Shown here: positions 2,197 to 4,672 of the stretch, piece by piece
Layout: each line of letters opens with the position of its first letter
Numbering within the stretch: position 1 is the stretch's first letter
Source of the DNA: a virus
Virus genome (UHGV): UHGV-0159509
Length of the DNA: 10,539 nt
Reading direction: 5' to 3' (one strand)
Program-made: the position numbers and the translations under genes
Notes under the pieces: generated by a model
Databases searched by the model: none
What the model was told of the DNA's origin: nothing
What the model saw: the letters and a program-made list of their open reading frames with translations, nothing else

Positions 2197-2889
2197 ATGA
2201 ACATAGGAAACCGAGTCAGACAACTTCGCCAAGCGAAGAACATGAAAATCGCCGATCTCGCTGAAGCGATAGGAGTAGATGCGGCGAACATCTCGCGCTT
2301 AGAAACGGGTAAGCAAAAACAATTTACCGAACAAACACTGAGTAATATTGCCAAGAGCTTAGGTGTTGATATTGCTGATCTCTTTACCTCTGCCCACAAA
2401 AGTAATACTGTATATAAAAACAGTAATAATGAGGATGTTGCGCAGGTGAAGGATGTGTTCCGTATTGAAATGCTGGATATCAGTGCCAGTGCGGGAAATG
2501 GCCTTATCCAGGGCGGTGATGTCATTGATGTGATTCATGCCATCGAATACAGAACTGATAATGCTGTATCAATGTTCGGCGGACGACCAGCCAATCACAT
2601 CAAAGTTATCAACGTTCGTGGGGACAGTATGTGTCCAACCATTGAGCCAGGAGATCTCATCTTCGTTGATGTCAGCATCAATCAGTTTGATGGTGATGGT
2701 ATATATGTCTTTGGTTTTGATGACAAAATATACGTTAAAAGACTTCAAATGATTCCTGACAAACTGCTGGTGATTTCTGATAACCAGATTTACCGTGAAT
2801 GGGGAATTACTAGCGAAAACGAACACCGATTCATGGTCTTTGGAAAGGTCTTAATCAGTCAGTCGCAAACCCTTAAGAGACATAATTAA
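2197..2889 (+). CDS. CI-like prophage repressor (N-terminal HTH, C-terminal S24/LexA-like autopeptidase domain)
   Basis: 230-aa ORF. N-terminal HTH (MKIADLAEAIGVDAANISRLETGK). C-terminal S24 peptidase signature GDSMCPT (Ser nucleophile) with downstream Lys (VKRL). Candidate Ala-Gly autocleavage site in DISASAGNG. No SD upstream of the ATG. Confidence 0.9.
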   Translation: MNIGNRVRQLRQAKNMKIADLAEAIGVDAANISRLETGKQKQFTEQTLSNIAKSLGVDIADLFTSAHKSNTVYKNSNNEDVAQVKDVFRIEMLDISASAGNGLIQGGDVIDVIHAIEYRTDNAVSMFGGRPANHIKVINVRGDSMCPTIEPGDLIFVDVSINQFDGDGIYVFGFDDKIYVKRLQMIPDKLLVISDNQIYREWGITSENEHRFMVFGKVLISQSQTLKRHN

Positions 2890-2939: not shown

Positions 2940-2995
2940 CATTTTGCATATTTCGCAAATATTACTTGCATATCTCGCAATTTAATTTTATCTTT
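2940..2995 (+). promoter_or_regulatory. Putative OL/PL-like operator-promoter (second cluster of CGCAA motifs)
   Basis: ATTTCGCAAATAT (2950-2962) and ATCTCGCAATTTA (2972-2984) resemble the CGCAA half-sites of the cI/cro intergenic region. TTGCAT -35-like hexamers at 2944-2949 and 2966-2971, with AT-rich -10 candidates around 2983-2994. Confidence 0.4.
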
Positions 2996-3143
2996 TGTTC
3001 CAGACCAACTACAGGATTACAACAAAATCTGGTTGCAACACGGTGCATGTGTCGTAAGCAGTCAGTAAATGTCAAAAACGAACAGGCAGGACGCCCACGA
3101 AGTAGCCGCCTGGGGCATATGAAGTCCAGGATGATTCGTTAGC

Positions 3144-3170
3144 AACAAAAAAGCGCCCTACAGGACGCTT
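3144..3170 (-). terminator. Candidate intrinsic terminator for the minus-strand 144-aa gene
   Basis: Hairpin AGCGCC-CTACA-GGaCGCT (3152-3169, one bulge). On the minus strand it is followed directly by TTTTTTGTTG (complement of 3141-3150). Confidence 0.45.
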
Positions 3171-3228: not shown

Positions 3229-3435
3229 ATGCACAAAACAGAACCCAAAATCGTCGCGCCTGGCTACACAGATGAGGAAATTTATGAGTGGATGACAAAG
3301 AAGCTGGCAGCTATAAACCAGCTTCGTGAAGTGCTGTCTTATCGACAGGAAACAATAGACTCCTTAAAAAAACTGGATCAGGAAATCACGGTTTTATCAC
3401 AGGATGTTACTTTAGATATTGTGCAGACAAATTAG
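3229..3435 (+). CDS. Hypothetical small protein (68 aa, predicted helical/coiled-coil)
   Basis: ATG at 3229 with SD GAGGA (3216-3220, 8-nt spacer). AT-rich codon usage. The 3' end overlaps the convergent 144-aa gene by 29 nt. No recognisable family. Confidence 0.5.
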   Translation: MHKTEPKIVAPGYTDEEIYEWMTKKLAAINQLREVLSYRQETIDSLKKLDQEITVLSQDVTLDIVQTN

Positions 3436-3841
3436 GATCCCATTCATTTTCGTCAAAATCATCAAAGTGATGAATTTGTGATCTCCAGTCTCGATAATCT
3501 AAAAATTTCTGGGCGGTTACGCTTATTTTATCAAGTGTGAGTTCATCCTGAATTGAAAGAAGAAGTTCATCAAATTTCATCTCATTAATCTGTTTTGGCA
3601 TCCAGTGATGCTTCATCAGAATAAGGTGAACCAGAGCCTTTTTCCCATTCAACTGATTATAGGGAGTGCCGAATTTCTTCCGGTGCTCATGTAAGACAAG
3701 GTCCAAAAGAGTAAGTAATGTTGCCCTTGATTCAACTTTGCTTATTTCGACTGATGACACTACCCCACTGATTTCAATGCCCCGATACTTTCCAACATTT
3801 TCACAGTGGGATTTGTACAGCGTATAGATATTACCGGACAT
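3407..3841 (-). CDS. Hypothetical protein (144 aa), AT-rich accessory gene in the immunity region
   Basis: ATG at 3841-3839 with SD AAGGAAAAG upstream on the minus strand. A long ORF in AT-rich DNA, where stop codons are frequent. No transmembrane stretch and no recognisable domain. Opposite in orientation to the flanking early-left genes. Confidence 0.65.
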   Translation of the reverse strand: MSGNIYTLYKSHCENVGKYRGIEISGVVSSVEISKVESRATLLTLLDLVLHEHRKKFGTPYNQLNGKKALVHLILMKHHWMPKQINEMKFDELLLSIQDELTLDKISVTAQKFLDYRDWRSQIHHFDDFDENEWDPNLSAQYLK

Positions 3842-3856
3842 TTCTTTTCCTTTTGC

Positions 3857-3908
3857 GTTGTTGGGGATAACCAGATTAACCGAATCCTTGTTGTTGGGGA
3901 ATAACCAG
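3857..3908. repeat. Two direct repeats GTTGTTGGGGA(A)TAACCAG upstream of the 144-aa gene
   Basis: R1 at 3857-3874 (18 nt) and R2 at 3890-3908 (19 nt, one extra A), 33-bp period, 16 nt from the start codon of the minus-strand gene. Confidence 0.6.
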
Positions 3909-4127
3909 GTCCACCTCGCCTGATGTGGCTAAAAGCAGGCACATAACAGCTAAGTATTTTCAACCAGAGAGAATCCTTAGCGTTGTGGTGAATGCGGCTC
4001 AGCGCACGCGGGTTAAGGTTGAGGCTGACAGTCGACCTTCTGTGGATACCCACCCGCCTGGTGTGCAACCTTCGCCAGGCACCGGGAGGCACCCGGCACC
4101 ACAACTTTATGCTGTGTGTAGTCCTGG

Positions 4128-4172
4128 CGGTACCAGTTTGTACCCTTGCTTCCGGCTGGTACCGTCCTTTTT
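4128..4172 (+). terminator. Terminator-like hairpin inside the structured island
   Basis: 9-bp perfect stem CGGTACCAG/CTGGTACCG (4128-4136 with 4156-4164), 19-nt loop, followed by TCC then TTTTT (4168-4172). Confidence 0.45.
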
Positions 4173-4261
4173 ACAAAACAGAGAAGAGCATCACCGGACG
4201 ACGGGCTCATAACCCAATCCATCCGGGCGGCTGCCACCGCAGGTGTTCTTCTCTGTTTTGT
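4173..4261. repeat. Long inverted repeat (18-bp stem, 53-nt spacer) just upstream of the first early-left gene
   Basis: 4173-4190 ACAAAACAGAGAAGAGCA pairs with 4244-4261 TGTTCTTCTCTGTTTTGT: 17 Watson-Crick pairs plus one G-U in RNA. The GC-rich interior (4191-4243) has further CCGG/CCGGG pairing potential. Confidence 0.6.
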
Positions 4262-4309
4262 GGAGAAACCAACCGACCTTGCAGGGTCGATATGATGAGG
4301 AGCAGCAAA

Positions 4310-4672
4310 ATGGCTAGCGAACGCAGTACTGATGTGCAGGCATTTATCGGGGAGCTGGACGGCGGCGTATTTGAAACCAAAATCGGCGCAGTTCTCAGTG
4401 AAGTCGCTTCCGGTGTGATGAACACGAAAACCAAAGGTAAGGTCTCACTCAACCTGGAAATCGAACCATTTGATGAGAACCGTGTGAAAATCAAACACAA
4501 ACTCTCATATGTTCGCCCGACTAACCGCGGGAAAATTTCCGAAGAAGACACCACCGAAACGCCGATGTATGTCAATCGCGGTGGTCGCCTGACTATTCTG
4601 CAGGAAGACCAGGGACAATTACTGACTCTTGCCGGTGAACCTGACGGAAAACTCCGCGCAGCAGGTCATTAA
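4310..4672 (+). CDS. Hypothetical prophage early protein (120 aa; YfdP-like by size and position)
   Basis: ATG at 4310 with SD GAGGAG (8-nt spacer). The upstream in-frame extension to 3992 is GC-rich nonsense. Size and position upstream of the YfdQ-like gene match my memory of CPS-53 yfdP; unverified. Confidence 0.75.
   Translation: MASERSTDVQAFIGELDGGVFETKIGAVLSEVASGVMNTKTKGKVSLNLEIEPFDENRVKIKHKLSYVRPTNRGKISEEDTTETPMYVNRGGRLTILQEDQGQLLTLAGEPDGKLRAAGH

Follow-up and report, generated by a model that had tools for sequence, protein, structure and literature searches.

A structured STnc100-like domain followed by a DicF-like terminator in the early-left operon of a lambdoid prophage

A structured non-coding island inside the early-left operon

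The window, the whole stretch of DNA analysed here (UHGV virus genome UHGV-0159509, 10,539 nucleotides (nt)), is part of an SfV/SfIV/CPS-53-like lambdoid prophage of Escherichia coli. Its layout was drawn from the annotation of an identical chromosome together with a list of open reading frames (ORFs). The subject of this work is an island of about 400 base pairs (bp) at 3910-4309, which lies within the early-left operon in the order cI-like repressor, OL/pL, ydfC homologue, island and yfdP-yfdQ-yfdR, leading on to xis-int. An earlier sequence-only reading had placed the island upstream of this operon; it is in fact inside it, downstream of the ydfC homologue. The cI-like XRE/S24 repressor gene (2197-2889, plus strand, by Pfam) lies next to a cro-like gene on the minus strand (1839-2099, from the annotation and ORF list) and has a terminator at 2909-2926. 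Operator-like palindromes, TTGC..AT..CGCAA, occur in the gap between these two genes (2108-2176) and just past the cI terminator (2944-2980), and they define OR and OL/pL. Because two copies of the operator TTGCATAT.TCGCAA, also found between cro and cI, stand at 2944-2980, the leftward early promoter pL must sit at ~2945-3000. The YdfC homologue is a small ORF (3229-3435; E 9e-18 against K-12 YdfC), and an ECs1072-family gene on the opposite strand (3407-3841) is embedded moron-like in the operon. Downstream of the island come yfdP (4310-4672), yfdQ and yfdR and, further on, xis and int. Positions 3800-4400 are 99.5% identical to many E. coli chromosomes; over 3842-4309, identity is 98-99% to phages Kati and SfIV and 95-97% to the aligning parts of SfV, SfII and mEp460. 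The region is at least partly present in 2861 of 5426 complete E. coli genomes (about half) and mostly complete in 1183.

The GC content of the island is 0.57-0.58 over 3901-4200, compared with 0.41-0.45 in the left flank and 0.48 dropping to 0.40 in the right flank. The contrast in composition with both flanks that had been pointed out is therefore real, but moderate rather than sharp. RNA of 3945-4175 folds with -93 kcal/mol (z = -3.83); its dinucleotide shuffles give -76 +/- 4.4 kcal/mol, and 0 of 200 equalled it. The hairpins proposed from the letters are all present: adjacent stem-loops at 4056-4080 (8 bp, P4 below) and 4082-4096 (5 bp with loop AGGCA, P5 below), with A4081 between them; a terminator-like hairpin (stem 4126-4138/4154-4166) with T5 at 4168-4172; and an 18-bp inverted repeat (4173-4190/4244-4261) whose 25-nt arms are 84% complementary. 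Fold, covariation and coding checks agree in making 3949-4309 a non-coding, hairpin-dense structured RNA.

A coding role, either as an N-terminally extended YfdP (ORF 3992-4672) or as a small overlapping ORF, is extremely improbable. It could draw on the 106 open codons upstream of the yfdP ATG (83 in cdtI and 126 in ST64B), on a 'frameshifted hypothetical protein' pseudogene that the Prokaryotic Genome Annotation Pipeline (PGAP) places at positions equivalent to 3985-4295, and on hypothetical proteins annotated here in some phages. However, the in-frame extensions of the window (3992-4309) and of ST64B have no protein similarity (E = 1.7), although their DNA is 77% identical, and a 20-nt indel separates them (alignment A3). 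In LLS and phiNP the frame is closed 1 and 5 codons before the start. A Pfam search of the overlapping ORFs of the island gave no match, and checks of translation and frame across lineages were negative, consistent with the view that these ORFs are nonsense; the substitutions instead preserve RNA pairs.

A consensus scan found no sigma-70-like promoter in 3842-4310, in agreement with the sequence-only reading, which had seen no convincing promoter ahead of 4310. Since no promoter of their own was found, the genes downstream of 4172 must rely on read-through, as had been suggested.

A divergent relative of STnc100/PasD with a conserved pseudoknot

An Rfam scan of the window gave no match at a gathering score. 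A permissive scan, however, aligned the STnc100 model (RF02076) over its full length (1-206 of 206) to 3952-4174 on the plus strand, with 43.1 bits and E 6.7e-8; weak matches to RprA, 6C, mir-9412, ftsZ-DE and others, all below threshold, were put down to chance. The island shares the core fold of STnc100, namely the closing helix, P1, P4, P5 and the conserved CACCGGGAGGCACCCGGCACCA, and the helices are aligned and covarying. The 22-mer CACCGGGAGGCACCCGGCACCA is present exactly at 4080-4101, and a Rho-independent terminator (the stem 4126-4138/4154-4166 plus U5) stands at the 3' end, as in STnc100.

Relatives were gathered by two independent exact-pattern scans of viral contigs, one for the 22-mer CACCGGGAGGCACCCGGCACCA and one for the 5' motif TGGTGAATGCGGCNNAGCGC, and these gave 36 lineages at about 92% identity; with such motif-based gathering, the conservation of the search motifs is in part built in, and counts of genomic context should not be taken as an unbiased census. 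Canonical copies, which we term type A, score 54-147 bits in Rfam and are often in tandem and often beside tRNA genes, while type-B copies (the window, ST64B, phiES15, L016, L064, L084 and others) fall short of the Rfam cut-off. A covariance model built from 10 type-B lineages only, R1, gives the window 108 bits by construction, the window being in its seed alignment, and it finds Rfam-positive canonical STnc100 copies (L010, L011, L015, L022, L024, L028 and L033) with 47-69 bits and E 1e-10 to 1e-16. Because each covariance model detects the other type, homology between type B and STnc100 is supported in both directions. We conclude that the 124-nt pseudoknotted domain at 3982-4105 (plus strand; Rfam STnc100, R1 and RNAalifold) is a divergent, type-B relative of STnc100/PasD, belonging to a subfamily missed by the Rfam threshold.

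The likeness to STnc100/PasD extends over the closing helix [A/G]UGGUG...CACCA[U/C], the GAAU junction, hairpin P1, P2, the variable hairpin P4, the conserved CACCGGGAGGCACCCGGCACCA, a spacer and the intrinsic terminator, and in both types the strand that follows P1/P2 forms a pseudoknot with the loop of P4. The window copy differs in its P1 (GCGGC...GCACGC, where the canonical form has CCCCU...AGGGG), in its DicF-like 3' module and in its setting, which is an early-left, pL/dicB-type operon, whereas canonical copies are reported near Q, stx, sialic acid esterase and holin/lysis genes. It also differs in that no promoter of its own was found. Several type-A lineages, read directly, carry TTGACA and TAAATT with a spacing of 17-18 nt and a +1 that falls on the first or second base of P0; no recognisable own promoter was seen for type-B copies, whose upstream flanks are GC-rich and unlike promoters. 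PasD is reported to lie within 10 kb of the gene for the Q antiterminator in >98% of cases, with sialic acid esterase and holin/lysis genes as frequent neighbours, and a copy of STnc100 is found 75 nt downstream of stx2 (bioRxiv 10.64898/2026.05.13.724894, PMC12370729, PMC5331693, PMC8550237). STnc100 and PasD both have Northern blot support as small RNAs: strain EDL933 expresses multiple STnc100 copies, one of which was confirmed in this way, and the stability of PasD is Hfq-dependent (PMC5331693, PMC8550237). Canonical STnc100 arrays were also seen next to phage tRNA genes, at 342-1253 of L022 (three in a row), 1142-1942 of L015 and 7683-8235 of L028, the last of these downstream of IsrI.

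Within the domain, P0 (3982-3990/4097-4105) is the closing helix and encloses P1 (3994-3998/4004-4009, with A4006 bulged), P2 (4010-4013/4052-4055), P4 (4056-4063/4073-4080), the unpaired A4081 and P5 (4082-4086/4092-4096, with AGGCA at 4087-4091). RNAalifold, run on a MAFFT-based alignment of the 10 type-B lineages, gave 28 pairs, nine of them with compensatory changes. In a model-fitted alignment of 102 matches with 50 distinct rows, the nested helices are 93-99.6% paired, compared with only 33-48% for slid-partner controls. The distinct rows show two-sided changes at 23 pairs, and 0 of 500 shuffles reach the observed values; many of the sequences are closely related, and cell counts are not counts of independent events. 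This alignment leans towards the structure of its model, and the MAFFT-based run is an independent check on it. The covariation in homologues that the sequence-only reading had asked for is thus strong. P1 differs between the two types: at four of its five pairs, 12-14 of the 50 distinct sequences have both bases altered, with GCGGC/GC(A)CGC replacing CCCCU/AGGGG. The P5 stem appears as CCGGG/CCCGG, as CCUGG/CCAGG and, in LLS, which was found by BLAST and by neither search pattern, as GGUGG/CCACC. Its loop AGGCA is constant except for two single-sequence variants.

The pseudoknot pairs 4015-4021 with 4066-4072 (AAGGUUG/CAACCUU). Other lineages have AAGGCUG/CAGCCUU, CAGUUAA/UUAACUG, AGACUGACAAA/UUUGUCAGUCU, CUGGUG/CACCGG, CCAGUC/GACUGG and more, for a total of 32 distinct duplexes. 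Because its register shifts by 1-2 columns among lineages in the model-fitted alignment, we relied on a partner-swap permutation test: over the 36 lineages, mean best complementarity is 7.7 for a strand and its own partner and 6.35 +/- 0.2 for swapped partners (p <= 5e-5). The search output prints a consensus structure for Rfam STnc100 in which no such pairing is drawn. A local alternative, 4015-4022/4032-4039, is open to the 5' pseudoknot strand and is the choice of the minimum-free-energy (MFE) fold.

The position of the domain is conserved as well. In six of seven type-B lineages (the window's and five of six others), it lies downstream of a cro-like/cI-like pair, on the strand of the repressor, and upstream of the first early-left genes; the repressor gene of these six is of the helix-turn-helix (HTH) or S24 kind. 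The first downstream genes vary and include yfdP (window and ST64B), kil with gam (phiES15), dicB and others. In the window, ST64B, cdtI, phiES15 and LLS, the interval from pL to the early-left genes showed no N-like gene. Three type-B lineages have no terminator, and in these the domain abuts the ribosome-binding site of the next gene.

The DicF-like 3' module and the K-12 dicF locus

Downstream of the domain, positions 4106-4125 on the plus strand form an arm that is unpaired in the MFE fold and contains the conserved UGCUGUGUGUAGUC (4110-4123), which is kept in phiES15, LLS, phiNP, ST64B and L207 despite their differing terminators. The arm is a candidate seed of a DicF-like small RNA, and AACUUUAU within it is a candidate RNase E site. 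It leads into a DicF-like intrinsic terminator (4126-4172, plus strand; 13 bp including G-U pairs, loop 4139-4153 and U5 at 4168-4172), which is also the 3' end of the STnc100 match. In a 91-nt search, the Rfam DicF model (RF00039) aligns over its full length to 4113-4167, that is, to the arm followed by UGGCGGUACCAGUUU...CUGGUACCGUCC, with 15.7 bits and E 0.17. The architecture is that of DicF: a single-stranded 5' arm of ~14 nt is followed by a long terminator hairpin beginning UGGCGGUA.CAGUUU. This start is common to the window and K-12 DicF, and UGGCGGUA.CAGUU is common to K-12 DicF, cdtI, phiNP and the window. A DicF variant in L235 that passes the Rfam cut-off (61.1 bits) has the window's GUGUAGUC arm. 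The location is also that of DicF, namely a dicB-type early-left operon downstream of ydfC and a structured domain. Against the ftsZ initiation region, RNAduplex gives the arm the same energy as its shuffles, and genuine DicF likewise; a search inside the window for a target of UGCUGUGUGUAGUC returned the self-match only.

The largest of the terminator-less type-B lineages has dicB as its downstream gene (Pfam DicB, E 1e-21). In the Qin prophage of K-12, the order is dicC and dicA, ydfA, ydfB, ydfC, a structured element of ~110 nt, dicF, a type-B domain and dicB. This type-B domain, in the dicF-dicB spacer (NC_000913.3 1,649,453-1,649,583; L232 2454-2584), scores 113 bits with R1 and 34 bits, below the cut-off, with Rfam STnc100, and no RefSeq feature is annotated there. 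DicF is cut from the dicBp polycistronic transcript, without an internal promoter, and occurs as a 190-nt form with an RNase III 5' end and as a 53-nt form made by RNase E (Ragunathan et al., bioRxiv 10.1101/2023.04.14.536235). By its coordinates, the 190-nt species appears to start ~6 nt ahead of the helix that closes the structured element on the 5' side of dicF, and for this reason long DicF would consist of a structured domain plus the DicF hairpin-terminator. Positions 3982-4172 of the window, 191 nt, have the same layout. The two loci thus share the operon type (repressor, ydfC homologue, non-coding island, early-left genes), a structured domain of ~130 nt, an AU-rich spacer, a single-stranded arm with a GGCGGUA.CAG hairpin terminator, a total of ~190 nt and downstream genes that need read-through; K-12 has a type-B domain too, but between dicF and dicB. 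They differ in that the domain ahead of the DicF-like module is of type B in the window and of a kind we term type C in K-12, in that the window module has a different 5' arm and a longer stem and is below the Rfam DicF cut-off, and in that the downstream gene of the window is yfdP, with its own long-hairpin 5' untranslated region (UTR), and not dicB. Read by eye, the type-C element (2250-2356 of L232, upstream of K-12 dicF; 2360-2490 of L004, upstream of the cdtI DicF-like terminator) has a similar plan, with a closing helix GUUGUGG/C.GCAAC, a hairpin CCGCG/CGCGG and GUAUGG with CCAUAC in a hairpin loop.

Phage cdtI and the Stx2c phages share only 4125-4309 with the window, and the upstream part of cdtI is the K-12-type structured element. 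For this reason, modules appear to have been shuffled by recombination, the point of exchange being where the terminator begins. The DicF slot behind the K-12-type structured element holds at least four arm/terminator variants (L234, L235, L247, L318 and L323), a sign that different seed modules may be exchanged behind a structured domain that stays the same.

Two further hairpins lie between the terminator and yfdP on the plus strand (alignment A3). The long hairpin is the 18-bp inverted repeat (4173-4261), with an invariant interior CGACGGGCUCAUAACCCAAUCCA.CCGG; among the window, ST64B, LLS and phiNP we read compensatory or pair-preserving changes at stem positions 4, 11, 15 and 16, and the hairpin travels with yfdP in cdtI, Stx2c phages, LLS and phiNP, whatever lies upstream. 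The small hairpin (CGACC/GGUCG, 4274-4278/4285-4289), upstream of the Shine-Dalgarno GAGGAG (4297-4302) and the yfdP ATG, becomes GGCGG/CCGCC in ST64B, LLS and phiNP, a wholesale compensatory change. Because both travel with yfdP, we read them as elements of the yfdP 5' UTR, which might serve RNase III processing or translation control.

On the 5' side of the domain, motif M1 (CCACCUCGCCUGAUGUGGCUAAAAGCAGGCACA, 3912-3945, plus strand, read directly; possible hairpin GCCUG/CAGGC) is near-identical in Cronobacter phage phiES15, lies just downstream of a pL-like promoter in LLS, has short BLAST matches in Klebsiella and Hafnia phages and stands upstream, on the same strand, of 64 of 181 type-B copies in a biased sample of loci. 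It is followed by a plus-strand hairpin, P(-1) (3949-3961/3969-3981, 13 bp with one mismatch, in both the MFE and the centroid fold), which directly abuts P0 and is a candidate processing site. ST64B, read directly, has a hairpin of different sequence at this position.

Several features of the neighbourhood were seen in passing. ST64B and phiNP carry the same operator type as the window. Two minus-strand terminator-like hairpins (3151-3170 and 3300-3325) lie behind the ECs1072-family gene, whose place is taken in phiES15 by a different opposite-strand ORF. Between the start of this gene and motif M1, a direct repeat GTTGTTGGGGA(A)TAACCAG occurs twice (3857-3874 and 3890-3908); it may be regulatory for the ECs1072-family gene, and no promoter was identified in 3857-3908 on either strand. 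The pL leader holds another conserved structured element, AGCGAACAGGCAGGACGCCCACGAAGUAGCCGCC.GGGGCAUAUGAAG.CC.GGAUGAUUCGCU, at 3077-3142 (also L003 2167-2235 and L231 853-915), which starts within ~15 nt of the likely pL start in ST64B and phiNP. RNAalifold gives it a closing helix and two hairpins, with 3 compensatory pairs in 3 sequences, and it has CGAAC.GGC and GGAUGA in common with HK022 put, a resemblance short of demonstrated homology; it might be a real antitermination or leader signal of N-less phages. Matches to IsrK and C4-type antisense RNA over the Rfam cut-off occur near replication/regulatory genes of ST64B, cdtI and a Qin-like contig (L003 21-97, minus strand; L004 26-102, minus strand; L235 5046-5234), with none in the window.

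A processing model and its alternatives

We consider it somewhat better than an even bet, with a probability of about 0.55, that the island, a genuine non-coding structured RNA, serves as an internal leader of the repressor-controlled early-left operon and is a composite built and processed like the K-12 dicF locus. For its transcript ends, enzymes and trans activity, a dicF-like processing model is, by analogy, the most likely. Once the repressor is lifted, transcription from the repressor-controlled pL would enter the island, and the transcript would be cleaved at or near the hairpin 3949-3981 beside P0. Together with termination at 4172, this cleavage would leave an RNA of ~190 nt whose 5' end would be buried in the structured domain, which would probably stabilise the RNA. 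RNase E might then cut in the AU-rich spacer AACUUUAU and release a DicF-like small RNA of ~60 nt, whose arm UGCUGUGUGUAGUC could pair with targets in trans with the help of Hfq. Polymerases that pass the terminator would go on into the structured 5' UTR of yfdP and the remaining operon genes. The domain as a 5'-terminal module is supported because it sits at the 5' end wherever ends are known or inferred, as with the type-A promoters and K-12 long DicF.

Several points weigh against this account. The transcript ends, processing and trans activity of the island rest on analogy. The arrival of pL transcripts is only presumed, with the opposite-strand gene 3407-3841 and terminator-like sites lying between pL and the island. 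At 13 bp, the hairpin 3949-3981 is short for an RNase III substrate. With 43.1 bits, the island does not reach the STnc100 gathering threshold of 47 bits, nor does 4113-4167, with 15.7 bits, reach the DicF gathering score of 48 bits. The type-C element of K-12 and cdtI, which lacks P5, was rejected as a homologue of type B: R1 fails to detect it, and its resemblance, read by eye, is architectural only. Finally, in three type-B lineages the domain lacks a terminator and runs straight up to the following gene, so that a small RNA body cannot be all that it is. The constant AGGCA loop on covarying stems and the terminator-less copies before genes are unexplained by a plain small RNA body. On a more tentative reading, which we think possible but would not expect, the P0-P5 domain with its AGGCA pentaloop would act in cis as a portable module. 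By binding RNA polymerase or a host factor, it would decide the fate of the RNA downstream, through terminator read-through, processing by RNase III/E, stability or translation, and it would do so in the early-left operons of lambdoid prophages that lack N, that of K-12 dicB among them.

Among the alternatives, the island could instead be an independent small RNA gene that does not need pL: it would be transcribed from a promoter of its own in lysogens, as canonical STnc100/PasD are, and its RNA would act in trans with the aid of Hfq. Several canonical lineages do carry strong sigma-70 promoters with the +1 at the closing helix, plus terminators, canonical copies are abundant discrete RNAs in lysogens, and the STnc100 model aligns from 3952 to the U-tract. 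A discrete small RNA ending at 4172, which the sequence-only reading offered as its second choice, would likewise be in line with these relatives and with the 190-nt DicF of K-12. However, 3842-4000 has no promoter-like site, the upstream flanks of type-B copies do not resemble promoters, the position inside the pL operon is conserved, and the K-12 operon has no internal promoter, so that a gene with its own promoter is unlikely. Another alternative is a riboswitch-like or protein-responsive attenuator, in which the domain would sense a ligand or factor and switch the terminator or, in the terminator-less lineages, the ribosome-binding site. Against it, canonical copies stand alone, with no downstream cistron to control. 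The multi-helix junction with its pseudoknot, the invariant junction and loop bases and the differing downstream expression platforms (a terminator or a direct ribosome-binding site) would suit such a switch. So would two competing pairings, one being the local pairing of the pseudoknot 5' strand (4015-4022/4032-4039 in the MFE fold; L016 and L064 read directly) and the other the complementarity of the P4 3' strand CGCCAGG to CCUGGCG at 4124-4130, overlapping the 5' arm of the terminator. Yet the local pairing shows no clear compensatory change, and the CGCCAGG/CCUGGCG complementarity is absent when phiES15, ST64B and LLS are read directly. No conserved, mutually exclusive terminator/anti-terminator pairing was found in comparing these three with the window, and we regard the attenuator as very improbable.

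The sequence-only reading had first proposed a put-like antitermination or processing RNA. As an antiterminator of the put type, the nascent P4, A4081, P5 and AGGCA loop would bind RNA polymerase, as in HK022, and carry it past 4172 and later terminators, which would explain the absent N gene. No N-like gene was seen in the early-left intervals of the window, ST64B, cdtI, phiES15 and LLS, and the authors of the LLS report consider a put mechanism possible (PMC12315714). As in HK022, we have a lambdoid phage without a recognisable N, a structured RNA in the leftward early operon right before a terminator, and two hairpins split by a single nucleotide; the near-invariant loop on a covarying stem also suggests a binding site. 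The mEp021-type N-like/nut systems were set aside, as the published account does not extend to these phages. Sequence similarity to put is no better than chance, however: HK022 putL and putR, taken from the genome and aligned locally to the window, score 28.5 against a null maximum of 27.5, with equal scores at unrelated window sites. Unlike put, the element is not adjacent to its promoter, since the operators and pL are at ~2944-3000 and the element begins at 3982, ~1 kb away, and no second copy of the domain is found in the rightward operon of the window with filters off. The window domain has five helices and a pseudoknot, while put has two irregular stems. Contexts in other lineages disagree as well: the K-12 domain follows the dicF terminator, three lineages have no terminator after the domain, and the canonical relatives terminate efficiently as discrete RNAs of ~200 nt and occur as tandem, stand-alone units of promoter, RNA and terminator. 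Antitermination of the put type is therefore improbable.

The analysis links STnc100/PasD and long DicF, two small RNA families that are not connected to each other in the cited literature. It adds a conserved pseudoknot missing from the Rfam consensus structure as printed, and it defines a subfamily below the Rfam threshold. It also locates, in the well-studied spacer between K-12 dicF and dicB, a copy that carries no annotation and is open to direct genetics. Control of processing or read-through by the domain, if real, would matter for the gating of the toxic dicB and kil and of early-left functions as far as xis-int in N-less lambdoid phages. Should the domain prove to be a portable module, it would represent a new kind of leader RNA in phages, taking over part of what nut/N or put do elsewhere.

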